Shown here: positions 1 to 36,100 of the stretch, piece after piece
Position numbering within the stretch: position 1 is the stretch's first letter
How the letters are laid out: each line of letters begins with the position of its first letter
The notes under the pieces: model-generated
What the model was told of the DNA's origin: nothing
Seen by the model: the letters and a program-made list of their open reading frames with translations, nothing else
The model's database searches: none
Position numbers and translations under genes: made by a program
Assembly: GCA_028711765.1 (NCBI GenBank)
Contig: JAQTRP010000001.1
Location: forward strand, 1-50,171
Origin: Candidatus Omnitrophota bacterium
Lineage (GTDB): Bacteria; Omnitrophota; Omnitrophia; Omnitrophales; JAQTRP01
DNA: 50,171 nucleotides
Direction: 5' to 3'

Positions 1-3000
1 ACTGAAAATTCAAAAAAAGGCACTAAGTCTTCTCCTTTGCTCTTTTTATCGAGAAAATCGCCACGCTTAAGAAGACTCAAAATCGGCAGCGATACTCCTT
101 TGCTGTCGCAAGCTTTGACAAGATTATCTATAAATTGTCGCGACGCGAATTTTTTATAAATATTTTCATAATCTGTAAAAAGAGAACCGAGCCTGTCGAG
201 GTCCTCTTTCAAACCGGCAGCGTAACCTTTGCTCTTTTTAATAGCGTCTTCAAGTACATCCTCGATACCCGGAAGGTGTAAGCGCGCGGCTTCAACCATT
301 TCCTGTACTTCCCGCCCAAGTTTAAGTATCGGATAAATCTGGCTATTAACTCCATCCGGTTGGCTCTCCATTGACTTCATCCACTCTTCTGTGTTCTCGC
401 GGTAGCCGGGCCTCAAAAAACCTACGGTTAAATGTTGCGCCGCATCTGCTATCGCAAATGTTTTGTAAGTTAGGTTCTCCGGGGCATAAGAATCAAAAAA
501 AACCGGCTGGGCAGAGGCAGAAGAAACTTCAAGGCTCTGTTTGAGGGCATTAAAACGCTTCTTTAGAGTACTTAAGCTGTTCTTTCCCTCCCTGTCTCTG
601 ATCGTTGAGCTCATTTGGTCGACTACCTTTTCAATTTCCAGCACCTTACTACAAAGTTCTCCCATAATCGAATTTGAGGTGCCAATGCAAGCTGCATTGC
701 CCCAACCTCCCAGGGTCTTGAAATAATTCGCAAAGCTATGGGTAACGTAAACAAGCCAGTTGTTAAGCTCCGACATATCTTTTACGCTTTCTTCAATCCT
801 CCTGACCTGCCTCACGCGCTCCATCCAATGTATACATTCGAGTATAAACCCGGCCTGCACGGCGAAAGAGCCGAGATCCTTAAAAAGTTCGGCGTGACTT
901 CTCTCGTTAAAACTATCGTGGTCCGGAAAGAAAAAGTTCTTGCCCGCACTGCCCCAGTTGTTCATCATAATAACGCCTATAACCTCACCTGAATGGCTTC
1001 TTAGGGGCAGATAAATAATCTCATTCGCCGGTTCGTCATATGCCGCGAAATCCTTATCAAGCTGATTGTAATCAAGTATTCCGTCAAAAAAATCGTTTTT
1101 CTCTTCTTTGACGAGCCGCTTGATCTCTCCTCTTTTCAGTATAACGAGAACACCGTCGCGAAAAACGACAATGCCGCGTTTTCTTAATTCCTCAAGCTGC
1201 CTCAAGGCTTTCTCGTCCCCCTTGAGGATCCTTAGAAACCAAGCCTTTTCATCCGTCAGGACACGCCCTTCCTTCCCGTGGCGACTCGGAAACTTATTCT
1301 GCTTCTCGCGCACAAATTCTCTGAATTTCAGAGCGCCGGCCTTTTTATCAACAACGTATTTACCGTCATCCTTATCAAGCACTACCGTATAAAAACTGAC
1401 CCCCGATATGCCTATAACCTTAATAAGATCACTCGTTACGGCCCCGACTTTCGTGGTCGCCATTTCCCAGTCAACGCTCTCCTCCTTCATAGAGACTGCG
1501 GCCTCGCAAAGCTTCCTGATAAGTTCACGTTCGGCCACGGCATTAACGGGATAGCTGGCGACTTTACCCGTAAATTTAGGGCCGAGGGCGTAATATGCGG
1601 CCGTCGGGTCAAGACGGAATTCCCACGCAACGCGGGGATGTTCTATGTGCCCCCCGGCTATAAGTCCATTGATGCTCTCCCGCGCCGCAATGGCAGAATA
1701 TCCGAAGCGGATTAAAATTTCGCTGCCCTTAGGCTTTTTCGCGATGATATTCCCGGCATTGGGGGTGAGGGTGCGCCTATCTGAGCTCTCCTCATTCCTT
1801 ACCGCCCTTACGACATTCTCAAATAAAGTAGTAAAGACAAGCGTATTGCGGTAAAACGGCTCTACCGTAAACTCATCAAATTCAAGGAATTCATTCTCAA
1901 TGCGGTAGCTGCAGGTAGCGACATTACCGTGGTCAAAAACCCGTCCGATCGCATCTCCCGGCCTGATAACTTCCGCTTTTATTTCAAACTCGCCCATTCC
2001 TTTAGGCCACCATCTAATGAGCTTGCGGTTCTCCCATGCCTTTTCATTCTTTTGACTGAGTTCCGCGGATGAAAGAACCGCCCTCCGCTTTGCCGCAAAT
2101 TCAGGGTCGTCAACGTTTACAAATTTGTTATTATTTATAAAAACTGTTAAAGGCTTGCTGTTTTTGCCTACCCAAACATTCAGTAACGGTTTCTCTTTTC
2201 CTTCCCCCGTTACATTGTCTTCCTCTATCCGGACTTGATAGATAACGCCGGCGGGCGGATCGTCTTTCATGGACGCCTTGAGACGGTGTATGGCGAGGTC
2301 TTCCCTCGGATTCCCGCCGCGGCGCCTGAAATCGCCTATAAAGAAAGCTCTAAGCTTTAAACGCTTCTCTGTTTCCGGATTAGCGGTGTTAAGCTTGGTT
2401 TCAAATTCGGCCATGACTTCATCGGGACTGAACGTCGATCTCTGTTCGATATAGCGGTATATCTTCCAAAGCTCCTCCCATTCGGCGATAAGATAGTTTT
2501 CAAGATCACTCGCGGGATTTCCACAGAAGGCATCGTAATTTCGTCTAGCCCTGTCTTTGAATTTAACGCAAAATTCCTTCCACTTCCTCAGCCATTCATC
2601 CGCCGAGGCAATAGATTTTTCTTTGGACGCGTCCTCTTTCTCGAAGCGATACCGAAGAAGAGAAATGAGGCTTTCTTCAAAAGTGGTTCTTAGGCCTTCG
2701 TCTTTGCCGTTAAGCTCATTGCGGAAGAAAACCCTCATAATATCACAGGCGGCGTCGACGGCTTTATGGCGGCTAAGCGCCCGGGCGGCTTCGCCACGCT
2801 CACCGGCATCTTTTGAATAAAGAAGGGTGCGCACAAGATCGGAGGTTTGTCTACTGTCTTCAGTGCCGAGACTATGCCCTGAGCCGGTTGAGGGATCTAT
2901 ATCTTTAAGGTCGCGGCCGAGATAAATAAGGCTCAAGAGCTTCTTCTCGTCCGGCCGGAGCTTGTTAGCCTCAATGTAACGACGGAAAGCCCTCTCCATC

Positions 3001-6000
3001 CCTTCTTGTGATGAATTGCATTCGGAGTAAAGGTGGTCAATGGCATCCACAACCCACTTTCTTTCTTGTCTATGCCAAACGTACCGAAAGGCCTCGCGGA
3101 CTTTGTTTACACGCTCAAGCACGTTTTCTTTCTCGCTATCCTTTCGGATGATAATATGCGCCACGGCATCGGCGAGAATTTGATTCTTTTCGGTTTCGGA
3201 AATTTCCTCTGAAAAGTCCGCGATTGTAACCAGCCTGCGGAGGGAAAAAAGATTCGTGGTATGAAACATTAAATGGCGAATAAGGAAAAGTATTTTACCC
3301 TTCGTGGTTTCATATTTCTGCATACTAAAATCAGAGAGAATCTCGCTTTTCTTATCGGCAATTAATCTGTCTTCCAGGGCAAGCAGGGAGAAGAAACCGA
3401 CACGTTTGTTTATTTTTTCAGAAGCATCTTCAAACAGTTCTTCGACGGAAAGACTTTGCGGTTGCAATATCCCCCTTTTCTTAAGAAGGTCGAAATATGC
3501 GCCCAGAACACTCGCGCCAAATCTGCTGCAGCCGATCTCCGGAATACCACCGAAATAAAAAACCGTTTTTGCGACTCCCTTAAGCAGATTGGCGTCGGAC
3601 AAAATCAGGTCAAACAATTCATAGGCGGCTCTGCTTCGCATGCCGGTGGCGCTCTCCGACATACCAACGAGCACCGGCAGCGTTGTTCTAGCAAGATTAG
3701 CATCATGAAACTTAACGAGCTCTTTAATTCCCGCTTCCCCTAAATCAAGAAGTAGCCCTATAAGACGTTTTTGCCTCTTGCGGATTTCCTTAATACGGTC
3801 TTCGGCAAGGCGTTCTTCAAAGGGGGAATCCGCATATTCGGCTTCATCCGTGCCGACCCTGTTATACCAAGCATTATCTCTTACCCTGCCGGCATCATTT
3901 TGGGCTGCTTCGCCCTTCCACTTCTCTACAAGGACAAAATATTCGATAATCTGAAGCGCAACCATAGAGGGCGGGAACAAGCGTAATTCTTCCCGTGCGG
4001 CTTCAAGCTTTAACGGCGGCGGCGTACCCGAAAGAATCACTATTAATTCGCTCGCCCTCTCCGTTTGAAACTGAGCAATGACATCCTTAAAAACACCGAT
4101 AATAATGTCCCTGTTGGTTTTAACAACCGGAGCCAAGCGGTAGAGGTGATGAATAAATTTATCATCGAAAAGACCGAGGTCTTTGCGTAATTTCCCGTAC
4201 TTACCGGCAAGTTTATAGATTACCTTGTTAATTACCTCGTCCGTGAGTAAACCTATTTCTCTGAGCAACTGATGAGCGCTTTCGATAATACGCTTCCTGT
4301 TAGCTTCAAGCCATGCCTTAAGCCTTTCGGGCGACATCCCGTTTTCTGCGAGAGCGCTCCACCCCCAGAAACGCAGGATGTACTTACCTGTACCGGGCTC
4401 TTCCTGAACGAAGATATCGTCCGTACCGTTAATAAGATGGTTACCGAGAAGAAGCCGAAAGAGATCGCTTTCAATAAATTGGGGACGGTCAACAAGATAT
4501 GGATTCCACTCGTCGTAGTTCATCCAGACAATCGGCGGTGAGGCAATACTGCCTCCCGGACACTCAACTGAAATCAACCTGTCTTTACAATCAACAAGTG
4601 GCTTTGTTTCTTCAAAACGCTTCCCACCCTGAAAAACGTAAGTCGTCGCATAAAGTGTCCCGGTCGTCTTGTTAAGCCATAACCTTATCGGACTGATATT
4701 GTTAAAACCCACCGCCTGAGCAATTTCATATATCGCCCTTTCTTTAAACACTCCAACTGCATCCGCCGGATTTAATACTTGTCTTAATTCGACAAGTTGA
4801 TTTCCTTTTTCAAAACACACTGTTTTATCGCCGTTTGTGGGCTCGCCTACAATTTGCCAGCCTTCCCCTATCAAATCCAACTCAAGCGGCAGCCCAACAG
4901 CTTCATCCGTCCTGCCCAGACTTCGCCCTCCATAAAAAACGGCGGATTGATAAATTGTTTCAAGCTCGGCAAACCGCGAAGGATTAAACTGTACCGGAAT
5001 CCCTTTTTCGCGCGCCAGTTCGGCTAAATTAATCGGCCCCAAATACTTCTCGGTCAGGAGAAGCTGCGGGTCGGCAACAGTCTCGGCCTCAAGCGGCGAA
5101 TCGTCGCCTCCTATGCGCTTCCGGTACAAAACTTCTTCCGCGAAATCGGGCTCGATTCGCGGCACTATAACAACGTATGATATTCCCCTTTCGCGAAGCC
5201 GCTTTTTTATGCCGTCCGCGTGGAAACCTCCGGTAACAAGGAAAGCGCGCTTATCCCTATCAAGCACCTTGCTGAAATTCCTTGCAAGCGTGCCGTCACG
5301 TTTCTTGGCAAATTTGTAGAAACGGAGCGCTTTTTGGAATAAAGTATTTGGCAATGTACCTGGTACCGGTCTCGCGGGTCCGGTACCAGGTACATTGCCA
5401 GATGTGCCAAGTACGCGGTCCAGAACATCAAGATCGGCGGGCGTGGCCTTAAGCTCGCAAATCCTCTTTACAGCCTGAAAAACCTCAAGTTCCTTAAGTA
5501 AAACCCTATCCTCATCGTTCCGGATAAGCTTTTCCGTGCAACGGTTTTTTACCTCGCTTATTTCACGGAAAAGCCGCGCCGCGTTAAGGCTGTTTTTGAG
5601 AGTAAGATACTCGATATAGCGGCTCAGGTTGGGGTAATTGAACAATTTAAGGGCGGAAACCTTAGGAATGGATTGCGGCTCTTCTCCTTTTTCTTTTAAG
5701 GAAAGAAGCCCGTCTTCGTGCTCCGGATATTTCCTAATAAAATTATCGATCTCTTGGTTAAGCTTCGTTTTGTTAATCCGCCCGTTGGCATAAATAAGAG
5801 TATAAAATGCGCGTAGCTCGTGAAAAGAACCTGTATCGATCTCGAGCTCCTCGGATATTTTTAAGAATTCGCCGAGGGGCTTTAGAAAATCTTTCGATGT
5901 TACGATAGTATCCTTTAATTTAAGCATCTCCCAAAGCTTCCCCGGCAGAATCTTCTTCGCCCGCTCGTTAAGACCGGCTTCTCTCTCGTTAAGTAGAGGC

Positions 6001-6554
6001 AACCATTTCTCCTGAAGCCCAAGGGCCTCGAGATATTGCCTGCGGTTTGATTCATAGAGCCTTTTATCCTCGATACCGCAGAAACGCAGATTTTTATCGG
6101 ATAAAACCGTAAAATATTCGGAGCCGCTTAAGAGCGCCTCATGGAGAAGAAAGTCGCTCGCGAGCCTAAGGTAATCCTTATGCCTGTAATTTCGGAAGGG
6201 CTTAAGGTCGGCCTCACCGCTGCCACCCTCGACCGCGATGGTGCTTAGGAAATAACGTTTCGAAAGATATTCTATAATTTCCGATATTTTCTTCTGCGCC
6301 GGGCGATTACAGTGGGCATCCTGAATATAAACGGCAAGCCCGCCTCTTGGACCGCTGAAGACTTCATCCACAAAACCAAAGTCTTTCGGAATCGATATCG
6401 TGCGAGGATCGTAAAACGCGGAAGGCGTTAAATTGCCGGACGGAGCGTAGCCCGGTATGGCACCGGGCATAAGGGGCGCCGACCATGAAATGGTAGTCGC
6501 GCTGAAACACACAACTATTACGGCTGCGATTATCTTAATCAGTCTTGAATTCAT
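1..6554 (-). CDS. Giant multidomain membrane-anchored protein, N-terminal 2184 codons only (continues past the left edge); paralog of the ORF at 27134..36766
   Basis: Not in the ORF track because no stop lies in the window. ATG at 6554..6552 (in-frame TAA at 6582..6584 upstream). I translated the frame (codon low coordinate = 0 mod 3) by hand to nt 3 and met no stop. The N-terminus MNSRLIKIIAAVIVVCFSATTISWSAP is a hydrophobic anchor. ...LAVYIQDAHCNRPAQKKISEII..TIAVEGGSGE.. and ..AFLVTGGFHADGI.. are collinear with IVIYIQDAHCLYEAQKSIVSII..LIATEGGSGK.. and ..AILVTGGFHKQGI.. of the 3210-aa ORF. The + strand ORFs listed in 541..5319 are short antisense shadows. Confidence 0.85.
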   Translation of the reverse strand, partial: MNSRLIKIIAAVIVVCFSATTISWSAPLMPGAIPGYAPSGNLTPSAFYDPRTISIPKDFGFVDEVFSGPRGGLAVYIQDAHCNRPAQKKISEIIEYLSKRYFLSTIAVEGGSGEADLKPFRNYRHKDYLRLASDFLLHEALLSGSEYFTVLSDKNLRFCGIEDKRLYESNRRQYLEALGLQEKWLPLLNEREAGLNERAKKILPGKLWEMLKLKDTIVTSKDFLKPLGEFLKISEELEIDTGSFHELRAFYTLIYANGRINKTKLNQEIDNFIRKYPEHEDGLLSLKEKGEEPQSIPKVSALKLFNYPNLSRYIEYLTLKNSLNAARLFREISEVKNRCTEKLIRNDEDRVLLKELEVFQAVKRICELKATPADLDVLDRVLGTSGNVPGTGPARPVPGTLPNTLFQKALRFYKFAKKRDGTLARNFSKVLDRDKRAFLVTGGFHADGIKKRLRERGISYVVIVPRIEPDFAEEVLYRKRIGGDDSPLEAETVADPQLLLTEKYLGPINLAELAREKGIPVQFNPSRFAELETIYQSAVFYGGRSLGRTDEAVGLPLELDLIGEGWQIVGEPTNGDKTVCFEKGNQLVELRQVLNPADAVGVFKERAIYEIAQAVGFNNISPIRLWLNKTTGTLYATTYVFQGGKRFEETKPLVDCKDRLISVECPGGSIASPPIVWMNYDEWNPYLVDRPQFIESDLFRLLLGNHLINGTDDIFVQEEPGTGKYILRFWGWSALAENGMSPERLKAWLEANRKRIIESAHQLLREIGLLTDEVINKVIYKLAGKYGKLRKDLGLFDDKFIHHLYRLAPVVKTNRDIIIGVFKDVIAQFQTERASELIVILSGTPPPLKLEAAREELRLFPPSMVALQIIEYFVLVEKWKGEAAQNDAGRVRDNAWYNRVGTDEAEYADSPFEERLAEDRIKEIRKRQKRLIGLLLDLGEAGIKELVKFHDANLARTTLPVLVGMSESATGMRSRAAYELFDLILSDANLLKGVAKTVFYFGGIPEIGCSRFGASVLGAYFDLLKKRGILQPQSLSVEELFEDASEKINKRVGFFSLLALEDRLIADKKSEILSDFSMQKYETTKGKILFLIRHLMFHTTNLFSLRRLVTIADFSEEISETEKNQILADAVAHIIIRKDSEKENVLERVNKVREAFRYVWHRQERKWVVDAIDHLYSECNSSQEGMERAFRRYIEANKLRPDEKKLLSLIYLGRDLKDIDPSTGSGHSLGTEDSRQTSDLVRTLLYSKDAGERGEAARALSRHKAVDAACDIMRVFFRNELNGKDEGLRTTFEESLISLLRYRFEKEDASKEKSIASADEWLRKWKEFCVKFKDRARRNYDAFCGNPASDLENYLIAEWEELWKIYRYIEQRSTFSPDEVMAEFETKLNTANPETEKRLKLRAFFIGDFRRRGGNPREDLAIHRLKASMKDDPPAGVIYQVRIEEDNVTGEGKEKPLLNVWVGKNSKPLTVFINNNKFVNVDDPEFAAKRRAVLSSAELSQKNEKAWENRKLIRWWPKGMGEFEIKAEVIRPGDAIGRVFDHGNVATCSYRIENEFLEFDEFTVEPFYRNTLVFTTLFENVVRAVRNEESSDRRTLTPNAGNIIAKKPKGSEILIRFGYSAIAARESINGLIAGGHIEHPRVAWEFRLDPTAAYYALGPKFTGKVASYPVNAVAERELIRKLCEAAVSMKEESVDWEMATTKVGAVTSDLIKVIGISGVSFYTVVLDKDDGKYVVDKKAGALKFREFVREKQNKFPSRHGKEGRVLTDEKAWFLRILKGDEKALRQLEELRKRGIVVFRDGVLVILKRGEIKRLVKEEKNDFFDGILDYNQLDKDFAAYDEPANEIIYLPLRSHSGEVIGVIMMNNWGSAGKNFFFPDHDSFNERSHAELFKDLGSFAVQAGFILECIHWMERVRQVRRIEESVKDMSELNNWLVYVTHSFANYFKTLGGWGNAACIGTSNSIMGELCSKVLEIEKVVDQMSSTIRDREGKNSLSTLKKRFNALKQSLEVSSASAQPVFFDSYAPENLTYKTFAIADAAQHLTVGFLRPGYRENTEEWMKSMESQPDGVNSQIYPILKLGREVQEMVEAARLHLPGIEDVLEDAIKKSKGYAAGLKEDLDRLGSLFTDYENIYKKFASRQFIDNLVKACDSKGVSLPILSLLKRGDFLDKKSKGEDLVPFFEFS
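5350..5399. repeat. GTACCTGGTACC-core palindromic element, copy 1 (loop subtype A), located inside a coding region
   Basis: GGCAATGTACCTGGTACCGG-(TCTCGCGGGT)-CCGGTACCAGGTACATTGCC, with perfect 20-bp arms. It is read in frame by the giant ORF as GNVPGTGPARPVPGTLP. Confidence 0.9.
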
Positions 6555-6769
6555 TGGGATGTAACGACTTTCCGTCAAACTTTATTTAAGTCTAATATTA
6601 AGAGAGACAAAAAAATAGTTATCCCCTGTAAATAGAAGGGTTTAACTATTGTATCGAATATGCATAAATTATACTATATAAAGGGATAAATTACAAATGG
6701 AAAATCGACTAGGAAATATAGACCTGGGAAGTGTAACTCGTTATGATTGAATGAGTTGTAAGGAAGGCA

Positions 6770-7120
6770 CTACTTCTCGTAAAAAGTGAACGTTTTGAGG
6801 ATCTTCTTTTTGACTACCCACTGCGCTTTGAGACCCCTGGGAAAATGGATGATATCGCCTGCCAGGAAACGTTTTATTCTGCCATTCTTAAGTTTAACCT
6901 CGGCCTCGCCATAAAGTATGGTGCAGGTCTCGTCACCGGTATATTCCCACTTAAAGGCCCCGGGGGTGCAAGACCAAATGCCTGCCGAACAACAACCGTC
7001 TTTCGATTCAAATAAGACGACGCCCTTGGCCACCGGATTCCCCGAAACAATGTCCTCCCGCGGGATAGGCATGGCCTTCAGCGCGGTTTTCTTAACGCGG
7101 CGAATAAATGCGTCTCCCAT
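6770..7120 (-). CDS. Small single-domain cupin protein (DUF861/EutQ-like)
   Basis: 116 aa, ATG start. A beta-rich core (GIWSCTPGAFKWEYTGDETCTILYGEAEV...GDIIHFPRG) resembles small cupins. Family assigned by eye. Confidence 0.55.
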   Translation of the reverse strand: MGDAFIRRVKKTALKAMPIPREDIVSGNPVAKGVVLFESKDGCCSAGIWSCTPGAFKWEYTGDETCTILYGEAEVKLKNGRIKRFLAGDIIHFPRGLKAQWVVKKKILKTFTFYEK

Positions 7121-7144
7121 ACATTGTGCTCAATACAGTCTGGA

Positions 7145-7348
7145 TTAAAACTTTTCCGTTTCGCGCCGCTGATCCCGGCGGGCTTTCCGCTTGCCCTCTT
7201 CGCGTTCACGCCTGCGCTTGTCGGATCGCTTTTCAAACCGGAGCGACTTCTTATAATCCTGAATGATCCGGTGCTTCTGGCATTTTTTCTTAAAAAGACG
7301 TAGGGCGTCTTCTATTCTCTGTCCCTCTCGCACAACAACTTTTACCAC
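7145..7348 (-). CDS. rpsU: 30S ribosomal protein bS21
   Basis: 67 aa and very basic. VKVVVREGQRIEDALRLFKKKCQK...LRFEKRSDKRRRE matches the bS21 pattern. GTG start with AGGTGA 7 nt upstream. Confidence 0.85.
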   Translation of the reverse strand: MVKVVVREGQRIEDALRLFKKKCQKHRIIQDYKKSLRFEKRSDKRRREREEGKRKARRDQRRETEKF

Positions 7349-7455
7349 GCCTAATTCACCTCTCTTCTCTTTACTGGCGTTATTTCGTCGAGTTTTTACT
7401 GAGCCCCTCGACAGAGTTTACCCTGAACAAAACCGAAGGGCTTGGGGTAAAAGGA

Positions 7456-7902
7456 TTATTTATTCGCCGCCGGGGCTTTTTCCTTCGATTCGGTTCCCTT
7501 TGCCGGTGCCGGCGCTTCTGCTGTCTGTGACATTGCAGCCGCGCGTTGCTTTACTCTCTCTAAAAATTGCGGTTCCTGGGTGAGTTTCTTAACAATCGCG
7601 TTATAATCTTCGACGGTAATACCGGCGGTCTCAAGCGCCGCTCTGATCTGGCGGTTGGCCTCGATATTTATCCTTTGCGCCGCGGCGTCAACTTGAAGAA
7701 ACGCGTCTATTTTGGCATCGCTAAAATCCTGCGTAACCGGGGCGGCTTCCGGCGCAGCAGCCTCTGCCGGAGCTGCTTTTTCGGCAGTTTTCCCCTTGGC
7801 TTCCGCCTTTGCAGCATATAGCGAACCCGCGAAAATCAACGCGGACACTAAGCATACGGCGAGAAGTACCGCAAAACCGTTCCTCCTCACAAAATTAAAC
7901 AT
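7456..7902 (-). CDS. Secreted Ala/Pro/Lys-rich protein (possibly DUF4168-like)
   Basis: Signal-peptide-like N-terminus (FAVLLAVCLVSALIFAGSLYA). The track start 7905 is a TTG. The ATG at 7902 has GGAGG 6 nt upstream. Confidence 0.6.
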   Translation of the reverse strand: MFNFVRRNGFAVLLAVCLVSALIFAGSLYAAKAEAKGKTAEKAAPAEAAAPEAAPVTQDFSDAKIDAFLQVDAAAQRINIEANRQIRAALETAGITVEDYNAIVKKLTQEPQFLERVKQRAAAMSQTAEAPAPAKGTESKEKAPAANK

Positions 7903-8065
7903 CAAACTCCTCCTCTTTTTAGAAATGGTTTAAAACGATTAAACAGCCCAAATAAACGCGAATAATCTAACAACTAACTCATTAAAAAGCAAGTTCTTTT
8001 GGAATCACAGATTATCACAAACAGAACTACACAGATGGCCACAGATGAAAATCGACTAGCAAATA

Positions 8066-9637: not shown

Positions 9638-9658
9638 GACAATCTCTTAAAGCGCCGG

Positions 9659-11200: not shown

Positions 11201-11218
11201 ATCTTCTTCCTTTGTTTA

Positions 11219-11247
11219 GTAGGGACAGAACATTGTTCTGTCCCTAC
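11219..11247. repeat. Perfect 13-bp-stem hairpin just upstream of the LarA-like gene
   Basis: GTAGGGACAGAAC-ATT-GTTCTGTCCCTAC, ending 19 nt from the ATG at 11200. Function unknown. Confidence 0.6.
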
Positions 11248-11297
11248 AGCCGTATTTATAATCCGGCACCAGGAGCCGGTTCCATAAGTCAAGGTTG

Positions 11298-12042: not shown

Positions 12043-13053
12043 TCACCACGGTATTGTGACACCGGTGAGCAAAGACCATTTTTTCGACGTGTCTAAGTCA
12101 CCTTGTAGAAACAACTTAGCATTATTGCCGAGAAAGCGGTATCGAAAGCATACGGCAGTGGTCGAGAGGCCCGGAATGTCCTTCCTTAGGGAGAAAATGA
12201 GGTCGCCGTCCCTCGCAAAGTGATAGGTACCGCGAAATGTAACTTTGTCGCACCCACCGGAATGCCACTCATACTCAAAGGTAAGTTCGTATTTGCCATT
12301 TATAACCCAACGACCGTAAATAGCGACATTCCTTACTATATCGGAAGTGCTGCCCGCAACACGAATACCGATGGAGTACTTTATTACGCCTTTATCGGCT
12401 AGAATAACGTGGCCTGCGAGCTTTGCCTCAAAATTCAGGGAGGTATCGCTATCGGCGCCTAAAAGGTAACTGAGCCTGAGACCTTCCGAGATCGCCCACC
12501 TTCCGTCAAAAACTATTTCGTGGCTCGATAAGGCCTTTGCACCGTAAAGGCGCTTTTTGTACCGGTAGACAATCCGGTTGTCTTTGCCTAATTTCCACGC
12601 CGCTTCAAGGCTGAGTGTGCCCGAACTTAGGCCGTAGTGTGTCTTTATCTTGAATAAAAGCCTGTTTGCGCGATCGACATCCCAGGCCCCTTTAAAACTG
12701 AGCGTCCTGACGATAAATCCGCCGTCCGTGCGGACTAAGTTATACGAAAAGACGAACTCATTCGGCGACGACACTATCCATTCGCCGCTGATTTTAATTT
12801 CATCGCCCGCTGCCCCGTCTGAACGGCCGTCAAGCGTGAGAACGAGGTCGTGATTTGTATCCAGCCTGAAAGCACCGGATAAGTTAATAATATCTTTCTT
12901 CTTGTCGCGAAGCCGATAGCAAAGCTCGCCGGAACGGTTAAATTCGTATTCTCCTTCAAGCGCGAAATAAGCGGCTTGCGAACCGTGCGGCCTCACAAGG
13001 AGGGTATTATCCCCCGCTGTCTTAAAAGACCGACTTACTTTTGATTTGACCAT
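12043..13053 (-). CDS. Hypothetical beta-rich protein with seven internal repeats
   Basis: 336 aa, ATG start, no obvious SD or signal peptide. Seven repeats of about 40-45 aa follow the pattern (F/L)xGxW....N.L.F.Y (details in findings). Confidence 0.6.
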   Translation of the reverse strand: MVKSKVSRSFKTAGDNTLLVRPHGSQAAYFALEGEYEFNRSGELCYRLRDKKKDIINLSGAFRLDTNHDLVLTLDGRSDGAAGDEIKISGEWIVSSPNEFVFSYNLVRTDGGFIVRTLSFKGAWDVDRANRLLFKIKTHYGLSSGTLSLEAAWKLGKDNRIVYRYKKRLYGAKALSSHEIVFDGRWAISEGLRLSYLLGADSDTSLNFEAKLAGHVILADKGVIKYSIGIRVAGSTSDIVRNVAIYGRWVINGKYELTFEYEWHSGGCDKVTFRGTYHFARDGDLIFSLRKDIPGLSTTAVCFRYRFLGNNAKLFLQGDLDTSKKWSLLTGVTIPW

Positions 13054-27029: not shown

Positions 27030-27137
27030 CAGTGGTCAATCGCCAGTTGTCAGTCATCAGTAAAAGATTAAGCGGTAAGAAGTAAGGAAAAGCGCAACCG
27101 GCTAACCGGCTCACTGGCTTACCGGCTAACCAATTAA
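27030..27137. repeat. Degenerate heptamer array followed by an octamer array at the 3' end of the giant ORF
   Basis: Plus strand 27030..27085: CAGTGGT CAATCGC CAGTTGT CAGTCAT CAGTAAA AGATTAA GCGGTAA GAAGTAA. Plus strand 27098..27137: CCGGCTAA CCGGCTCA CTGGCTTA CCGGCTAA CCAATTAA. The last unit contains the TAA stop (27136..27134). Confidence 0.85.
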
Positions 27138-30100
27138 GCCGCGCGCGCTATGGCCGCCGCGCTGTCGCGTATGGCCTCGAGGCGGTCAAGATCTACTTCT
27201 ACGATGTAACAATTATTCTCAACTCGTATCGACTTTACAATATCGGGAAACTTGCCGAGAACGGCCTCGGCATCAAAAGCGACTCTAAGCAAAAGCGCAA
27301 AGAAAGGATTCACGGAAGCCCTTGTTTGCTTTGCCATATCAAAACTGAAAAACAAGGTAAGTTTGTCTTTGGCCCTTCGAGCCACGATCTCGGTCAATTT
27401 TTTGGCATCCTCAGTTTCAAGTGACTTCATAACAAAGACCGCGTTATTTATACCTTTGGCTTCCTCGAGCCATTTCGCGATGTCCCTCTTGGTTGCAACG
27501 TCAACTCTCCTAATTATGCGCAAGTTCTTCCCCAGAACAAACCCGGATTTAACTTCTCTCAGCCACACCGGAATATTGCTTACATCGTCGCTATCGCCGG
27601 AAATCACAAGCCTGCTGTCCTGGCCTAGCTTCAAGGCCAAGGCCTGTATCAACTGCTTCTGCGCAACCTTATCAAGACCTGTCGTAATAGAATTGAAATC
27701 AATAAAGAAAAATGCCGGCGTGCCGGATGGTTTTAATTGATCAAGCGGTACATCAAGAAGGTTGACCGACAGACCCAACGCCTCAGATAGATCGCCGGGC
27801 TCCATGCCGTACGCTTCCATCCACGCGGCGGGCCTTACCATCTTTTCCGGCGTGCCGCTCGCGTAAATAAGCGAGGCGTCGGTGAGTATTTTAGCGGCAG
27901 ATTGTATAAACGCACCCGTTTTGTCGGGTACTATTTTCTGCCCCTCCGGCGCTATCGCATTGTAATCCGCGACCAACCCTTCAATTTCTCTTACCGTTTC
28001 CTCATTAATGCCTGCTTCTAATATGCGGCATAGTAAAGCGCGGCTGTCACTATATTCCAAAGTTTTCTTTCTAATCCATCCCCGGACAAGGCTCTCAACT
28101 CTATCGTGTTTGAGACTTTCCCAATTTGCCAAAACGCTAACGACATCAGCCGCCGCCGGCTCTTTGATTCCTATATCAGCTCCCGGCAAAACTTCTTTTA
28201 GCATGTAATAAGCGATAACATCCGCCGCCGTCTTTTCCATCCCGAGCGACCGCCCCGCTGGGCTAAGGATTCCGGGCTTCGACGAACTAGTCAGTTTCGT
28301 CAAGTCAATAGTGATTGTAATATTTCCGTCAGGACCTTCACCAGCTCCCAGCATATAATCCACGTTGGGTCTTGCGCCATAAATTTGTCCGAGGTATTTT
28401 TGATAAAAGCCAAAGGCGTCCTGATAGGCGGAAATCGTGGCCTTCGTCATTCCGTATTCCTTTAATTCCCCGAAAAACACACCCATAAGGAATGAACCCA
28501 ACCCTCCGTCTCTTGCATCTTTCTTTACAAAAAGCCATTTAAGGTTACCTGTATTGTTCCTGCGGTCGATTTCGATCAAACAGCAGCCCTGTGTTTCTCC
28601 TTGAGAATCAACATATACGAAGAGTTCGTCAAAAAATTTAAGCTCAGGATTACTTGGGTCCTCGCGGCTAAACGAATTCACCGATTCAAGAGCAGAATCT
28701 TCGATGGCAAGGCCTTGAAGAAGCTTTTTGGCCTCGGCATATCCTACGCCTGCTTTTTCCGCGGCATCCAAAAACTGCCGGAAATTTAATGCCGCACCTT
28801 TATCCTCGTGAGCATATTTTGTCCCTTGACGCACTGCCTCTTGCAGCTCGGTTTTAAACCCCAGCGAGGCGCCGGGCGTGATTTGCGCAGCGTTTCTTTC
28901 ATCGATAAAAGCTTTATACGTTTTCAGCTTGGCAAGTAACTCTTTTTCTTTCGAATCTGTGATTAATCCCTGAACGCCGGCCTGCTTGATCGCAGCCTCA
29001 TAGAAGCTTCTTGTTGCTTCGTTCGGAACTAAGTACGCTTCATGAAAAGATGCGGGTATGTCTTTCCCAAAGAAGTCCTCAAGTTTACCATCTTCGCTGT
29101 TACGCCTTAAAACAACATATAGCGGCCCAAATGGCCCTGCTGAGGTAGGCGTTTGTGTTGTTCCCTTATTTAAAGTACTGTAATCTACCACACCGCTCTT
29201 GCCCGTTTTTATACGGCCGTCAAGCATTATAGACAATAAATTAACAACGCCGCCTTTCTCAAGGCTTACACCATGCGCCAAAATACCCTCCCTGTCTCCC
29301 AGCCTAAGCAGATTTTCTTCTGGGCCACCCTCGCGTAAGTCGGGCAACAACTCAACTTTGCTAAAATCCACCTTGTAAACTGTTCCGTCAATCACTTGAA
29401 GAACATTACCAACCATACCTGCCCTCGAAGGTTCATGTTCTTTAAACCATTCAAAAAGATCGCTTTTTTGCTCCGGGCTAAGCGTTGCTATCTGTGAGAC
29501 AAATTCACCATTTCTCCTAAGCGCGCCTAAATTACGCGCAAACAATTCGGCAAGATCAAAGTCGAGCTTTTCCATAAACCCATCTTTTACAAATTTCTCC
29601 CCCAGAGCGCGGCCTTCCAACACAGCCTTGGCTTGAAGTTCTTTTGCGGCGCGCTCTTCGGTTTCCCTAAGCCTTCTAACGGCTTCACTATAGGCCGCCT
29701 CGTCAAACCTAAGCGGTTTCTGTACCGCATTTAATAAATCGGCAAGGTCTTCTCCTGATGGTTCATCGGCTACCGTCAAGTAAGCGCCATTTTCGGTCAA
29801 TTCGGCTTTTGCGTCATCCGCCAGATCCTCCAGGCGCAACAATCTTTCCACTAAAACATCCCTTTGCAAAACTAAATTCCGGCCCATATTACCTGCCGCG
29901 GGTTTTTCGCCTTGCAAATATTCTATTTGGTCATTAAGACCGCTGAGTTGGTTTTTGATTTTCTGCGTCTCTATTTCAGCGGTATCGAGTAAAGCTTCCA
30001 GGTGGATTTCGGCAGCCTCTTCCGTTTTCAGCGAAGGAACCTCTTGCACGCTATATCTCACAGCCTCGCCGGGCTTTGGTTCTATTCCTTCCGCAAATCT

Positions 30101-33100
30101 TTTTTGATTAGCAACAATTTCTTCTTGCTCCTTCACCTCTTTTCTAATATTAATCAATTCCGAAAGCTGGCGAGATATGTCATTCTTAAGACTGCCCGTA
30201 AGAACTATAGCGCGCGCCATCATTCTGGAGTAAGGATCCGACACCTTCGCGTCGTAACTCAACATCGGAACCTCGCCAATCAAGGCATTCGCCAAAACAA
30301 TGTGTTCAGCAACCCTGCCGAGCAATCGGGCCTCTCTCTTATTTATAAGATTATCTCCCGATGCAGCATTGTAAGACGCGACCCATGACTGCATAAACAT
30401 ATAAGCAAGCCTCGCGCAAGCTTCAACGTCGCCGCTATTTATAAGATTCCACTCGCTCTCGCTTACAACAATAGTTTCATAACCTTTCGCCGGATCTATA
30501 AATCTGACCGGCCCCTTAATGCCGGGTGTGGTTTTATCCGGGACAGTAAATAATTCCGGATACCGATAGCGCCTGACGGCGTCTTTCCCGAGTCTCGGCC
30601 CTACTGCTTCTTCCGCCGCATTTTTCACGACTGGCGGCGGCCCTTCAATCCAACGGCCTCCAAGTTTCGCGAGGGCGATTATTCCCTGCGCTAAATCTCT
30701 ATCAACGTCTCCCTCCCAGCTATAATTGCCCTCGAACTCCTCCCCCAGCGAGGCGCCGGCAGGAGCAGCAGGTATACCAGCCGCTTCCGCGGCTTTGGCC
30801 AATATACTGTCGGGCATAATAATATTGGGCAAAGGTGTAGCAGCAATTGTTATCGGCTCACCAACGGAAGCTTTCTTAATAAGTTCCTTGTGCATCTTGC
30901 CGGCCGGCCCAACCCATATCCACTTTGACCAAGTCCCGTCTTTCAAATTGATAAGCTCTATGCCAATAAATTCCCCTAATACTTGCACGTTTTTGTAATA
31001 GATATCCTTAAAATCATCGGTTCCTATATTAATAAGCCCGCAAAACTCGCCCCGATTTCTATCAGAGCTTATGATTTCGAAGGCCTTCTCGACAAGTTTC
31101 TGACCGTCAACGTTCGCCTTAAGGTTCCCAAGAACGTCCGGCCCGGCCTTTCCTGTTCTTGCGAGATAATTGCGGTATTCCTCAAGAATCTGACGCGTGG
31201 CCCTAAAAGCAAGAGATTCATCCAAAAGCGGCGGCATACCAGGGCTTTTGATGTTGTTTACAACATGAACCAACTCGTGATAGATCTTTTGCGCTATCCA
31301 ATAAACCTTATCCGCTCTTGAACCTTCTTCTTTCTCAAAAGCGTCTAATCCTACAACAACAAGTTTGACACCCCGGGGCACCATGGCAAAACTGTTGTCG
31401 TCTAACCCCCTCACGAAAAGTACGCTTGCGCCGTCCGCCTCATCTCCAAGATTGAATTTCTTCTTTAGTAAGTTGTGAGCGTCCCGGACCATTCCTCTGA
31501 ATTCAGGGTTATTTGAAACTCCTACTGACCTTTCCACCATCTCCCTTGTGATATTCGGCACTTTGTATCCGGTAATATTCATCAGGAAATCAATCGGATA
31601 TATACGTGTATCTATGGAAGGAGGTAACCTTTCACTAGAAAATGCGCTGCCATTTTCTAACCGCTCATCCATAATCCTGTCCTCGAGCAGCTTTTTAAGA
31701 TCAGGGTCTTTCACTTTTCTGCGGGCGCCTTCGAGAGCGGCTATTATTTGCCGGCTGGTTCCTTTGGGAACGAGAACTGAATATTCTCCGGTTGGGCCTC
31801 TTATAATTCTAATAGACCCGGTTTGTTCTTGAGCAACGCTCTGCCCCCCAACGCCCAAGACGAAAGCCGTTCCTAATGCACCTAAGCTAACAAAAAATTG
31901 CCTCCTGTTAAAACCTTTACCAGCCTCAGCCTGTGCGGTCCCCAGCGAGGCGCCCTCCCCGCCAATGGGCACGGTTTTCTGCAGCCAGCCCCGTACAAGA
32001 TTTATCTGATCTTGTTTAAGGTTCGTATTCTCATTTTCAAGAGCATCATTTAAAAATTCCGATAGTTTGCTATCATCAGGAAAGGCCGAACGAAAAGCCT
32101 TACCGATACCATCCAGAATTTGCCTTCTGCTTCTCTTAAGGTCATTCCTGTCTTCATAGTAAAGAAACAGCCTGGACAACAAGAAGTCTTTGCTTCTCTG
32201 ACGCGATCCTCTAAGTAATCCCAAATCGACAACAACAAGATCGGGATTTTCGGGGTCTCTCTGTTTTCCACGAAACATAATGTTGTTAGGATGAACATCG
32301 TTAAAGTATTCTTCCCTCCCCTTGGCTTTACTGTTCTGTATTCCGAGTTGAATGTAGGTTGAAACTACCGTTTCTCTTTCTTTGGGACTTAACGGTTGAA
32401 TTTTAACGGCATCTTTTACCGTTAACCCGTCAATCCACTCTTCTACATAGCTGTTCCTGTAAGGCGAACCGAATCGTGGTATAAATTTAGTCCACTGTAA
32501 AACTTGCAGTGATGCTATTTCATTATCTTCAATCGCGCCTTCCTTGAAAGCGAACAAAAGCTTAAGCTCTCCATCCGGACTTAACGCTTTCTCATAGATC
32601 TTCCTGTATTGATCTTTTATCCTTAGCCGAATTTTAAATACGTGTTTCTCGGTTGACGAAATAAAATACTTCATCTCAACTTTCTCAAGGTGCTCAGGTA
32701 AGGCGCCCGAAATGCCGTACACATTCTCTAAATTTCTGCTAAACTTAAATGCGTCCCCAAATAAATCTTGCACTTTATCAATAATTTCTTCCTTACGGCC
32801 TCCAACGTAACTATCCCCTGCCTCATTAACCCACGCGTCTTCTTCCAAACTCAAAGGTAACTCAACCGCCCCCAGCGAGCGGCCGGAGAGAGCAGTGGTG
32901 ATTCTAATCAAATCTTCTCGTGTTGCGCCTATGTTGCTACTCTGTAACTGACTGAGCAGTTCTTTTTTAACGGCCCCTGCTAATGCCGGAGAATATTCCA
33001 TGCCTTTTGCTTCTGCCTCTCTCATAACGTAATTTTCCACAACGTCCGGCTGCTCAAATATATAAACCATAACCTGAGCAGTTGACATACCTTGTATCCC

Positions 33101-36100
33101 GATAAAGTTCCCCATAGGCAAAAGCTGGGGCGTATTTTCCTTGCTGCCGAAAACCTTTGCCGCAGCCTCCTCAATTGCCCCCGAATCCTGGGGCACTATC
33201 TTCATCGCCTTTATCGACCCAAACATTGCCACCGCTGTTTCGGTCGCAAAAGGCTTTTTATCCACTGCTATTTTTACTGCAGTCGTTTCGGACGGGATAA
33301 TGGTAACTTTAGTGGGTAATTCAGGGCTGGTGGGCGTAGCGGTAACCCCAGCCCCTTTCGGCTCAACGCCGATCTCTATCCATCGAAAACCCGCTTTGAA
33401 CCGATCAAAAACAAACGTGCTAATAACGGTAGCGACGGTATCTTTTTCGCGGGAGGATCTCTCAATCTTAAAGCGCGGCCTGCCTTCTTCATCGGAATCG
33501 TAATATAAAAGTACCGAATACGCGGTGCTTGCCTCAAAATCCGCTTTTGTCTTTCCCACGGCTCCCAAAATACATTCCTCGATAAAATCGCTAAAACCTT
33601 CCGCGCCGACATAGCTCTTATACTTTTGATTAACGAGCCGTTCAACCTCTTGCCGAATTCCTTCATCTGAATCTATCGCGTAAAAAATAATCGGATTTTC
33701 CTCCAGCGGCACTTTCATAAAATCTTCCTCGCCTTTCTCCTTATCTCTAAGTATACTTTTCAGTGCCGAGACCTTTGCTTTGAGTTCTTTTATCTTGTCT
33801 TCATATTCCTTTTCTTTTCCTGAAATATCTCCGACGTTATTATCCAGAATAAATTGAAGTGTATCTATTTCCCTTTCGCTTCCGGTTATCAGATTCATCA
33901 GAACTTCATCCGGCTCATGCGTAAGCGTGGCGGGAGCAGATGCCGGAGACGTAACACCGGAAGGCGCTAACGACACATCCGTCTCAGCGGTTAGCTTTTT
34001 TCCAGTCGCTGAAGGAAGCGGCAAACCGCGAAGGCCTTCCATATCCAAATGCCCTTCCAAATCTTCTTTGGAAATGCCATGTCTCCGGGCTGCTTTACTA
34101 ATAGCCTCCTCTAAATAATTTTTTGATACGGGACCGCCGGTCCTGGTTTTCTCGGCTATCGCATCTTTAAGGGCTTCCGCGGCTTTCTCCACTTTCGCCC
34201 CCAGTGAAGCACCCTTGATCGCTTCCATATCCTTATTCGTCATAGCCCGGCGGGTCCTTGCTTTTTTCGCTTCCAATTCCTTTATAACCGCCTCGGCAGC
34301 TTCTTTCATTCCCAGCGACCGGCCTGCCGGTGCAGCCGAGGCGAGGTTTGCAACAAGTGCGGTAAGGAGCGGCAGGTCTTCATCGCGAAGCCCCCTATCT
34401 TTCAGGGTTTCCCTTATGACTTTCTCAACGTTGCTGTACATCTCTTGGTCTGCCGGGCTCATCTTGTCGTACGCCACTTTAGATACAGCGCTTAAATTGA
34501 CTCCCTTCATTTGGCCTACCTTGTCGACAAGCCCTTTTATATCTTCTTCCCCAAGACCCAACTGGCCCAATCGCTCCCTCGCGACAACTGTTGTGCCTTC
34601 GAGAAGCGCTGTTCTTCCCGCCGGAGCTTGGGCAATTGCCGCTTTGACTAAATTCCTGAAACCATCTTCCGTAATTCCCTTCTCTGAAAGCGCCCCCGAG
34701 AGATAACCCCACACCTCGGGCCACGTTCTAATCAATTCTTCCAAAGCCTTGCGGAATTTTTCATCTTCTCCGGCCCGCTTATTTAAAAATTCAATTATGC
34801 CCATCCCTAAGTTCTGCTTAGCGGCGTCATTTAACTGGCCCAAAATGTATTCGGCCGGATCACCGCTCGTAAGCAAGGCATCGTCGGCGAAGAGAATCAT
34901 CATAGCCTTTATAAATTCCTCGTGTCCTTTCTCGCCGACTGCCGCAAGCACGGGAACGGCTATCGTGTAACGCGAAAGTTCGCGGTCGATAATGTCGAAA
35001 AGGTCGTCCACGTAACGGGTGTAGCGGCCCGCCTCGGCAATCTTGCCCTGCTTCATAGCCTCATCGATAATGCGGACCCGCCATGTAACGAGGCTGTTGT
35101 GGAGATGGGCGTAGTCGGAGCGCGGCGCGCGCCGTGCGAACTCGGCTTCGAGTTTGTCGGCGTTCAGTGTATATTCCCCGCGCATAACGCGGAGATAGCT
35201 TGAGTCGTCAAAGTTCGAGAAAGAGGGAGAGACGATGATGTATGAGATATTGTTCTCTCTGAAATGGCGGGTTATGCCCTGCTTGTGGAATCCTCCCGTT
35301 ACCAGAATGGCGGCCTTGGCCTTTTCGGAGCTTACTAAGTCCTCGAAATTATTATAAATTACTTCTTCGCGCTTGATTGCCAACTCATAGAAACGCTCCG
35401 CCCACTTGAGGTCGAGTTTAAATTGTGTCTTCTCGCCGAACTTCGAGAGGAAATCATTGAAAACTTTGATATCGTAAAGGCCGCGGGACTTTTCGTATTC
35501 CGCGAAATCATCCCTTGCAAGCTCAAGCTTGGCGATATTCTCAAGAACTGAGAGCCTCTCGTATAAAGAATCGAGGGTTTTATCGTCTTCGCCCTTAAAC
35601 ATAGAGGACTTGATTTCTTTGGAGACGGACTTTATCTCGCTAAAAAGCTCGGTGCCTTGCATTTCGCGGATATCGAGCGGAAAGTCGAAGACGTCTTTCA
35701 TTTCGCTCTGGGGGCCTTCTTCAAGACCGAGCTTTCTGAGAACCTCAAAAAGCTCTCTCGCATAGGAAAACCTTGAGGCGCGGCCGATTTGGTAGGACTG
35801 TTTTATCCTTGCAAGCTCGCGCTGTTTTTCCTTGTGGGTCCTGTCCTTAGCGAAAAATTGCGAGAGGGCCGCCTCGGCTTTATCGATAAACTGTCTGAAG
35901 CGCTTAGAATCGCTCCCATCGGCCTTTTCTTCGGCGTTCACATTCTGGATAAGAGAAGCAAGCTTGGGATACCTAGCAAGGAAGAGTTTTTTCTCAACCG
36001 ACTTATCTCTTATGACGCAGATCAGATCTATAAGCGAAATTTTGCCTTCCTTATAGTTACTAAGAGCGGCGTCGAATTGTTTCAACTCTCCGGAGTAAAT

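Follow-up and report, generated by a model that had tools for sequence, protein, structure and literature searches.

Two giant genes of a Candidatus Omnitrophota bacterium share an N-terminal head and a private motif that may mark polyprotein processing sites

Two giant genes and the head they share

The DNA analyzed here (the window) is a complete NCBI contig of 50,171 bp (JAQTRP010000001.1) from a Candidatus Omnitrophota metagenome-assembled genome, and it carries two giant open reading frames (ORFs) on its minus strand. ORF A runs from an ATG at position 6554 to position 1 through 2184 codons without a stop, and an in-frame stop lies nine codons 5' of the ATG. The chance of 2184 stop-free codons is (61/64)^2184, or about e^-105. 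Positions 3139-11248 of the window are identical in a separate Logan assembly (L001), a stretch that takes in the first 1,138 codons of ORF A, with the head described below and the first motif. ORF A was absent from the automatic ORF track solely because it passes off the left end of the window, and since the window is the entire contig, the gene is cut by the contig end. The only other contig with the neighboring gene is 8.1 kb long, and it gave no leftward extension. ORF A is a genuine Candidatus Omnitrophota gene, truncated at the contig end. The second gene, ORF B, encodes a protein of 3210 amino acids (aa).

On the alignments, ORF A is a true paralogue of ORF B that has the N-terminal module alone in common with it. 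Residues 6-465 of ORF A align with residues 30-514 of ORF B at 27% identity (BLASTP, E = 5e-37), and the alignment holds YIQDAHC, EGGSG, LVTGGFH, and ISY..V.P. Outside this module, here called the head, no significant alignment between A and B was found by BLASTP or by module-versus-module phmmer. A first-pass annotation, made from the letters of the sequence, had described a stop-free ORF running off the window, a common N-terminal module with the 3210-aa ORF, an unrelated remainder, and a family of modular giant proteins. Translation confirms the ORF, with no stop or frameshift in the independent assembly over the region that it covers; the pairwise alignment bears out both the common module and the unrelated remainder, and the family proved far larger than had been guessed.

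The head defines a very large family that is recognized by neither Pfam nor NCBIfam and whose cargo (the rest of the protein) is wholly different between members. An exhaustive profile search with a head alignment of eight sequences as the query gave 9,985 cluster representatives at E <= 0.001, nearly all from Omnitrophota, and 6,999 at E <= 1e-30. The head is always N-terminal (residues ~1-530), in proteins of ~500 to 5,568 aa, and is either fused to 0.5 to 5 thousand aa of cargo or encoded directly 5' of a separate giant gene. Among GTDB species genomes there were at least 560 confirmed head matches, nearly all titled Candidatus Omnitrophota, with several copies in some genomes. Pfam and NCBIfam had no match anywhere in ORF A and only GNAT in ORF B, and NCBIfam also had none on 36 heads.

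Genes of the head family also occur in tandem, with three in one locus (L034; 2306, 2449, and 1106 aa) and two each in loci L020 and L063, which suggests local duplication followed by cargo replacement. A distinct subgroup of ~670-745 aa (head plus ~200 aa) was seen in seven loci (L021, L031, L036, L040, L046, L050, and L065), where the next gene is not a giant cargo gene and instead encodes ~250 aa on the opposite strand; this subgroup may be a different functional subfamily.

Ten residues are invariant in 160 of 160 heads (H81, E109, Y167, Y413, R419, G442, G443, H445, P465, and Y477), and Q78, D79, G110, G160, and E162 are kept in at least 157 (E162 in 159). The conserved order within the ~500-aa head is IQDxH, VEG, GIED, F-Y-x5-R, TGGFH, P, and Y, and both A and B have it. 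Every aligned member begins with a hydrophobic, signal-peptide-like segment. The AlphaFold model of the head has a predicted local distance difference test score (pLDDT) of 73 overall and 80-92 in the core. In this model, strands 60-66 and 73-79 lead into IQDAH, followed by a helix, strand 105-108 leading into VEG, and strand 157-161 (GIED). An all-helical insert (aa 164-434) comes next, then strand 436-442 leading into TGGFH, a helix, and strand 459-465.

Head and cargo can also come apart. GTDB loci contain genes of ~490-510 aa that encode a head alone, and next to each, on the same strand and either 5-60 nucleotides (nt) downstream or overlapping it, is an ORF of 1,000-2,500 aa. In six loci (L008, L024, L069, L078, L080, and L081) the downstream giant ORFs lack a head and have signal-like N-termini of their own. 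In a further locus (L066), the separate gene 3' of the head is 39-66% identical to the head-fused cargo of three family representatives (P0056, P0072, and P0096). The first GRSLG of ORF A (aa 543), a copy of the motif described below, falls where stand-alone heads end (490-560 aa). By eye only, the downstream cargo of the same six loci has a short motif, approximately D-x-L-[RK]-x-x-[SA]-[AT], past the signal-like N-termini (e.g., DHLRGRSA, DKLRTKAA, DNLRPKSA, and SNLRAVST); it might be a recognition or maturation site.

Table 1. Features of ORF A and ORF B (window coordinates; residues are those of the ORF concerned).
Feature	Position	Strand	Remarks
ORF A	1..6554	-	5'-complete, 3'-truncated coding sequence, at least 2184 aa: head and two cargo modules
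Sigma-70-like promoter match, TTGTAA-17-TATAAT	6668..6696	-	~110 nt 5' of the ATG; consensus match only, count not above shuffle expectation
Hydrophobic N-terminal segment of A, aa 5-23, signal peptide or membrane anchor	6486..6542	-	Sole strongly hydrophobic segment in ORF A; hydrophobic N-terminus in every aligned homologue
Head domain of A, aa 50-482, alpha/beta core split by helical insert aa 164-434 (nt 5253-6065)	5109..6407	-	Alignments, profile search, AlphaFold pLDDT 80-92 in core
His81, IQDAH motif, candidate catalytic residue	6312..6314	-	160/160 heads
Glu109, VEG motif, candidate catalytic residue	6228..6230	-	28 residues past His81; 160/160 heads
Glu162, GIED motif, candidate second glutamate	6069..6071	-	159/160 heads
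His445, TGGFH motif, candidate second histidine	5220..5222	-	160/160 heads
GRSLG motif 1 of A, aa 543-547	4914..4928	-	Head/cargo junction
Cargo module A2, aa 548-1225, 678 aa	2880..4913	-	No domain (Pfam, E <= 10); no relative in 148 family members or 80 loci
GHSLG motif 2 of A, aa 1226-1230	2865..2879	-	
Cargo module A3, aa 1231-2184+, truncated	3..2864	-	Holds the "GAF-like" stretch (nt ~790-1150) and the His helix (nt 711-746)
ORF B, 3210 aa, MDD5084432.1, "hypothetical protein PHE61_00115"	27134..36766	-	Head aa 30-514 = nt 35225-36679
Span of the seven G-x-S-L-G motifs of B	28241..34324	-	34310-34324, 34199-34213, 32870-32884, 31940-31954, 30743-30757, 28859-28873, 28241-28255
ABC1 atypical-kinase-like region of B, aa 1441-1536	32159..32446	-	PF03109 E = 1e-4, 22.0 bits vs. 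cut-off 22.9; within module aa 1300-1604 (305 aa)
GNAT acetyltransferase of B, aa 2710-2793	28388..28639	-	PF00583 E = 9e-5, above cut-off; PHROG acetyltransferase; within 201-aa module aa 2637-2837
Twin-arginine-signal-like segment of B, aa 1618-1650, GFNRRQFFVSLGALGTAFVLGVGGQSVAQE	31817..31915	-	RRQFF begins 11 residues past GASLG (aa 1605-1609)

Cargo modules and the G-x-S-L-G motif

Cargo is often held in common within the family. Among the top 150 representatives, most have cargo that can be aligned with that of another member (median 94% covered), and everyday enzymes of metabolism, phosphoglucomutase and transaldolase among them, occur in family cargo. A and B stand apart, as 0% of their cargo matches any other representative (148 family representatives). 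Against 1.1 Mb of Omnitrophota loci, A and B cargo gave two weak matches only, one of them between module A3 and locus L069 (tblastn, E = 7e-5), and scans of GTDB and metagenomes gave no match to the cargo of either ORF. Pfam found no domain in the A modules (aa 548-1225 and 1231-2184+) at E <= 10.

The short motif G-x-S-L-G divides both proteins into modules. It occurs nine times in the 5,394 residues of A and B, against 0.16 expected: two copies are in A (0.05 expected) and seven are in B (0.11 expected), where no shuffle gave more than two. None of the ~30 remaining genes on the contig has it, and the two matches that six-frame translation gives elsewhere are no more than chance predicts. 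In this genome the motif has the form G-[R/A/H]-S-L-G and stands at the end of linkers rich in Pro, Gly, Ala, Ser, and Thr, which fill 24 of 36 positions in the four residues before it, against a background of 30% (p = 6e-6). The resulting modules are of 542, 678, and 954+ aa in A and of 814, 32, 438, 305, 394, 623, 201, and 368 aa in B, and every recognizable domain falls inside one of them. The first-pass annotation had placed GRSLG and GHSLG at exactly the coordinates found here, and its linker motif is real and highly non-random. The GASVLG at 3501-3518 that it took for a variant is probably no copy, lying in a hydrophobic context (GCSRFGASVLGAYFDLL) without a small-residue linker.

The serine codon of the motif is AGT in A and TCG or TCA in B, and this difference points to selection on the protein. 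In B, one identical 15-mer (GGCGCCTCGCTGGGG) encodes three of the copies (28859-28873, 30743-30757, and 31940-31954, minus strand); it is found only at B motif sites, with no DNA repeat beyond the motif. CTG, a minor leucine codon in ORF B, is used in six of the seven B copies. The DNA identity of the B motifs exceeds what protein selection alone would need and may reflect recent copying of linkers or a constraint at the nucleic acid level. A DNA-level repeat or recombination site was rejected on the lack of a repeat past the motif, the restriction of the 15-mer to B sites, and the other serine codons in A. Ribosome skipping of the 2A type was also rejected, as the motif is too short and the sequence upstream is not conserved.

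By the counts, G-x-S-L-G is private to the A-B pair of this genome; as a family-wide motif it was rejected, with 23 copies in 160 proteins, nine of them in A and B. Other members have private motifs of their own: RTSP in nine copies in P0127 (0.03 expected), RRSP[AS]G in four copies in P0052, ARFG in four copies in P0051, xRFA[DE] in five copies in P0090 (RFAE four times and RFAD once), and DLGM-x-x-GGE in four copies in P0139. In P0127, the domains nest between the motifs. Its tandem CsrA pair directly follows RTSP-1654, the match opening at profile position 2, and stops seven residues short of RTSP-1783; module 1987-2606 encloses a glycogen-synthase pair, GT5 plus GT1 (2006-2528), and module 3056-3650 encloses a transaldolase (3150-3494). 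In P0139, Metallophos starts 15 residues past DLGM. Private motifs are commoner in members with orphan cargo (5 of 12 vs. 3 of 90; Fisher p = 4e-4). The cargo of P0127 has no relatives either. The enriched "motifs" of P0133, P0154, L026, and L063 were set aside as parts of longer domain repeats.

The two CsrA domains of P0127 (aa 1654-1786) sit in a signal-peptide-bearing protein of 3,969 aa with RTSP on both sides, and they are potentially a covalent pseudo-dimer of this global RNA-binding regulator.

ORF B has one further feature that bears on processing. Eleven residues past the GASLG at aa 1605 it contains NRRQFFVSLGALGTAFVLGVGGQSVAQE, which reads like a twin-arginine (Tat) signal peptide. 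The full pattern, NRRQFF followed by SLGALGTAFVLGVGG and SVA/Q, is unique in A and B and would be internal to the chain unless GASLG is cleaved. No other RR.[FL][FLIV] string occurs in either protein, and no uncharged 15-mer of B is more hydrophobic than the one in this segment. After it, in the same module (aa 1610-2003; window 30758-31939), comes a HELVH string of the HExxH zinc-metalloprotease type, with no Pfam family. From these strings, this module might be an exported protease.

The genes preceding ORF A encode a cupin, ribosomal protein S21, a DUF4168 protein, a GDSL/TPR protein, and a LarA-like protein. ORF B is preceded on the same strand by an HTH_17 plus PilZ gene (205 aa, 36763-37380, minus strand) whose stop overlaps the ATG of ORF B (36764-36766) by 4 nt (ATGA), an arrangement that suggests translational coupling. 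Further 5' of ORF B on the same strand are genes for an FtsX-type permease (37613-39973) and an ABC ATPase (40002-40718); 3' of it are an OmpA-LysM gene (25928-26836) and an OEP gene ~4.7 kb downstream. ORF B and its neighbors could form an operon with a cyclic di-GMP-binding regulator and a MacB-like exporter. No neighbor of A or B is conserved near head genes in other loci. PADLOC gave no match to A or B and PHROGs matched only the GNAT of B, so that neither search links them to a defense system or a phage. Two other ORFs of the window, at 41022-42869 (plus strand, 615 aa) and 12043-13053 (minus strand, 336 aa), have no Pfam match at E <= 0.001.

Proteolytic processing and the alternatives to it

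The arrangement of head, motifs, and modules suggests that A and B may be polyproteins in which the motifs serve as site-specific proteolytic processing sites that release the modules, a reading that we hold to be about evenly balanced between right and wrong. The products would be separate proteins, among them the GNAT, the ABC1-like kinase, the HExxH protein with its signal-like segment, and the unassigned modules of A. The most economical candidate for the protease would be the head, because it is the only universally conserved part and has an invariant set of two histidines and two glutamates (2His/2Glu) like that of TIKI/TraB/erythromycin-esterase hydrolases. Cargo fused to it would be cut in cis, cargo encoded by an adjacent gene in trans, and the scissile bond could lie between Leu and Gly. 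A broader proposal, offered tentatively and on balance unlikely to hold in full, is that the head, as an N-terminal protease of TIKI-like type, recognizes a short code specific to each lineage and cleaves there both the cargo fused to it and the products of adjacent giant genes, releasing CsrA, glycogen synthase, transaldolase, GNAT, and kinases. The code would be G-x-S-L-G in this genome and RTSP or RRSP, xRF[AG][DE], or DLGM in others.

Members of the TIKI superfamily are often extracytoplasmic and signal-anchored, and none is known to stand at the front of a polyprotein. The TIKI/TraB/PrgY/ChaN/erythromycin-esterase hypothesis was named from the pattern xxxH...E...GxxH before it was tested. 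Like the superfamily, the head has a predicted alpha/beta core with helices, an invariant 2His/2Glu set, and the motif shape GxxH...E...GxxH followed by G-[IL]-x-x-x-L; unlike it, the core of the head is split by a helical insert of ~270 aa, and its first motif is Q-D-x-H rather than G-x-x-H. The superfamily, which includes Bcr135 (PDB 3B55), has a parallel-sheet core and a 2His/2Glu active site, and the catalytic pair of Bcr135, His85-Glu113, has a spacing of 28 (PMC6254334). The spacing of H81 and E109 in the head is also 28, their equivalence to the TIKI catalytic positions being putative.

Tests of this similarity all stayed below significance, and they weigh against the processing reading as far as it makes the head a TIKI-like protease. 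PF04187 (ChaN, Tiki superfamily) matched the TGGFH region in 2 of 36 heads, with a best, non-significant E of 0.09. In the AlphaFold model of the head, strands, motifs, and helices succeed one another as expected for a superfamily member. In a Foldseek search of the PDB, 3b55 ranked fourth at a non-significant E = 1.2 (template modeling score 0.17-0.22), with the whole model as the query and the helical insert dominating. Among viral models (BFVD), Foldseek ranked a Marseillevirus "TraB family protein" 17th (E = 0.73, non-significant). Alignment by hhalign of an insert-free head profile with an E. coli YbaP (PF01963) profile gave E = 0.015 at a probability of 3%, laying the VEGxG of the head on LEGA and its GGFH on GALH; the YbaP/TraB profile was shallow and enterobacterial only, so that the power of this test was low. 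With E. coli YbaP as a single sequence the probability was below 1%, and the head hidden Markov model, with and without the helical insert, found no superfamily member among PDB sequences. The four pointers to the TIKI superfamily are independent, each of them below significance. Since all similarity tests were sub-significant, the head is not filed as a superfamily member; by sequence and profile it has no significant similarity to any recognized one. A TIKI-like hydrolase is the leading hypothesis for the head, and we consider the fold fairly probable.

The helical insert gave weak matches to PF23202 (ZNF598 PAH) in 20 of 36 heads, one of them above the gathering score, and to DUF1722 in 7 of 36, and the head profile weakly matches centrin EF-hand pairs. 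All of these fall within the insert and probably reflect a generic likeness among helical bundles, though the insert could itself be a separate domain for binding.

Further points count against processing of A and B. No cleavage has been observed, and all that is said on it here, down to which protease would act and which bond it would cut, is read from sequence. There is a topology problem, in that an export-like N-terminus is set against the many family cargo domains of cytoplasmic type (CsrA, glycogen synthase, transaldolase, phosphoglucomutase, and GNAT), and the internal Tat-like signal would make sense only for a cytoplasmic precursor. That segment has no match to the Pfam and NCBIfam models PF10518 and TIGR01409. 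The searches turned up no orthologue of the cargo of either protein in which the motif might be seen to persist over evolutionary time. A shared genome-specific motif was rejected as a general rule for 10 other genomes or loci, where paralogues share none, and most members have no detectable private motif, so processing at short motifs is not the general rule of the family.

Long proteins of Omnitrophota have been described as ORFs with a signal or anchor that string together unrelated enzymes (GNAT, kinases, phosphoglucomutase, starch synthase, and transaldolase), and cleavage has been proposed for them (West-Roberts et al., 2023, 10.1101/2023.11.21.568195; bioRxiv 10.64898/2026.06.07.730766). 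Both the long modular proteins and the idea of their cleavage are already known. The present proteins come from the same phylum, and the family cargo matches the class of the "multi-enzyme metabolic cluster" (10.64898/2026.06.07.730766). They differ in that cleavage is ascribed there to C39 and S8 protease domains, neither of which occurs in A or B, and in size, A and B being of 2-3 thousand aa against the 10-thousand-aa proteins of much of the 2026 analysis (10.64898/2026.06.07.730766). Term searches of both papers gave no passage on a conserved head, its possible TIKI-like nature, the fused or split relation, or explicit candidate cleavage codes, and a full-text literature search on polyproteins in Omnitrophota found a single paper, which by its title and abstract is on another subject.

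The strongest alternative is that A and B are uncleaved, membrane-tethered multi-enzyme scaffolds, with the head as an anchor or assembly domain and G-x-S-L-G as a linker signature, docking site, or modification site (e.g., for serine phosphorylation or glycosylation). We regard this as possible, if somewhat unlikely. CsrA works as a small dimeric RNA-binding protein; it is hard to picture at work within a chain of 3,969 aa, and its domain in P0127 begins exactly past RTSP. A plain linker would also need no exact five-residue motif, kept across different serine codon families and missing from other genes. The signal-like segment just past a motif suggests a free N-terminus, and head and cargo do occur as separate genes. 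The scaffold draws its support from the absence of a recognized protease domain in A or B (Pfam and NCBIfam), from a private motif that most family members lack, and from the unproven assignment of the head as a hydrolase. Long "multi-enzyme metabolic cluster" proteins, anchored by signal peptides or transmembrane helices, are moreover described as a class in Omnitrophota with no evidence of processing (bioRxiv 10.64898/2026.06.07.730766).

MARTX toxins are cut on the C-terminal side of Leu, with a small residue at P1', a pattern that S-L/G would match. Like A and B, they have a constant framework with interchangeable modules set apart by short linkers, and in MARTX one of the toxin's own domains, a protease, cuts these linkers (PMC6254334). 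They differ in relying on a C80 cysteine protease, on RTX-like repeats, and on secretion by a type I system, none of which Pfam, NCBIfam, or the gene neighborhood showed here, and in their toxins, where the cargo here includes enzymes of housekeeping type. A MARTX-like multi-effector could be exported to a host or prey cell, with the head for export or attachment and a different protease, trans-acting or activated in the target, freeing the modules there. The Sec-like N-termini and the cytoplasmic-type enzymes and regulators in the cargo, which would act in the target cytoplasm, are consistent with this. So are the interchangeable, autoprocessing-released MARTX effectors, one of which, RRSP, is a TIKI-fold endopeptidase (PMC6254334), and the description of Omnitrophota as nanobacteria with host-dependent traits (PMC10066038), along with a study that ties giant genes to bacteria that prey on others and to the breakdown of the prey cell wall (10.1101/2023.11.21.568195). 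A and B, however, have no RTX-like repeats, C80 domain, or translocation region and no conserved secretion-system neighborhood, and an internal Tat-like signal would be pointless outside the cytoplasm of the producer. We consider this alternative improbable.

A signaling kinase, with a GAF sensor and a HisKA_2-like phosphoacceptor helix in the C-terminal part of A, had been proposed in the first pass and is very improbable. The residues quoted for a GAF-like segment at nt ~790-1150 are present, and IIYLPLRSHSGEVIGVIMMNN...LFKDLGSFAVQAGFILE resembles by eye the last strands and closing helix of GAF domains; the domain itself finds no backing, with no GAF, GAF_2, or GAF_3 match at E <= 10, including when GAF profiles were run against aa 1701-1990 alone. 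The histidine helix fared no better: ORF A, whole or by module, matches no HisKA, HisKA_2, HWE_HK, or HATPase_c model at the same threshold, and the 245 residues after His1939 that lie in the window contain no HATPase_c match and, by eye, no N-box or G-box. A single-sequence AlphaFold model (pLDDT 36) was too poor to judge the fold, which leaves some room for a very divergent GAF domain. By these profile searches, the GAF/HisKA idea is not supported.

G-H-S-L-G and G-A-S-L-G fit the classical G-x-S-x-G pattern of lipases and esterases, and GGHSL resembles the thiolation-domain core; that the motifs are serine-hydrolase nucleophile elbows or GG-x-S-L phosphopantetheine carrier sites, marking repeated catalytic or carrier domains, is nevertheless scarcely credible, as no alpha/beta-hydrolase, patatin, or PP-binding model matches A or B, the residues before the motif are rich in Pro, Gly, Ala, Ser, and Thr and do not form a hydrophobic beta-strand, and the spacing is irregular (32 to 954 aa, with two copies 37 residues apart).

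Processing of one long chain at short motifs has precedents. Viral polyproteins (picornavirus 3C and flavivirus NS3 sites) likewise place unrelated proteins in one long ORF with a short lineage-specific linker motif; the present case differs in its cellular genome with many paralogues, in a protease that is only a candidate, and in the many members without an obvious code. In the gingipains RgpA and Kgp of Porphyromonas gingivalis, a single ORF encodes a signal peptide, then a protease, and then several C-terminal modules, which the protease itself separates by cutting at a simple residue code. They differ from A and B in their cysteine-protease fold, in type IX secretion with a C-terminal sorting domain, and in modules that are related adhesin domains rather than unrelated enzymes. 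Polymorphic toxins (CdiA, Rhs, and LXG) have a constant N-terminal and a variable C-terminal part, with a short motif such as VENN between them. The constant head, variable tail, and short demarcating motif are alike here, as are paralogues in one genome that share the head and not the tail; unlike those toxins, A and B have several modules per protein rather than one toxin tip, and the searches showed neither an immunity gene nor a toxin domain nor a setting among secretion-system genes.

Implications for the giant proteins of Omnitrophota

Omnitrophota are marked by their long and giant proteins, for which the choice between single chains and cut pieces is explicitly an open question. A 2023 study of giant genes states that the lack of known cleavage points blocked analysis (10.1101/2023.11.21.568195). 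The present locus makes the question testable. It supplies a conserved N-terminal module, absent from Pfam and NCBIfam, that heads thousands of such proteins, and it supplies statistically solid candidate cleavage codes (G-x-S-L-G, and RTSP in another member) that coincide with the borders of complete domains.

If the processing reading is true, it would answer whether and where giant Omnitrophota proteins are cleaved and would reveal a virus-like polyprotein strategy in a cellular organism. Bacterial polyprotein processing with lineage-specific codes would be established, and, for annotation and structure prediction, the codes would show where to divide a giant ORF into its functional units. 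The TIKI/TraB hydrolase superfamily would gain a new branch and a new role. If the reading is not true, the head is still a very large uncharacterized family that deserves a name.

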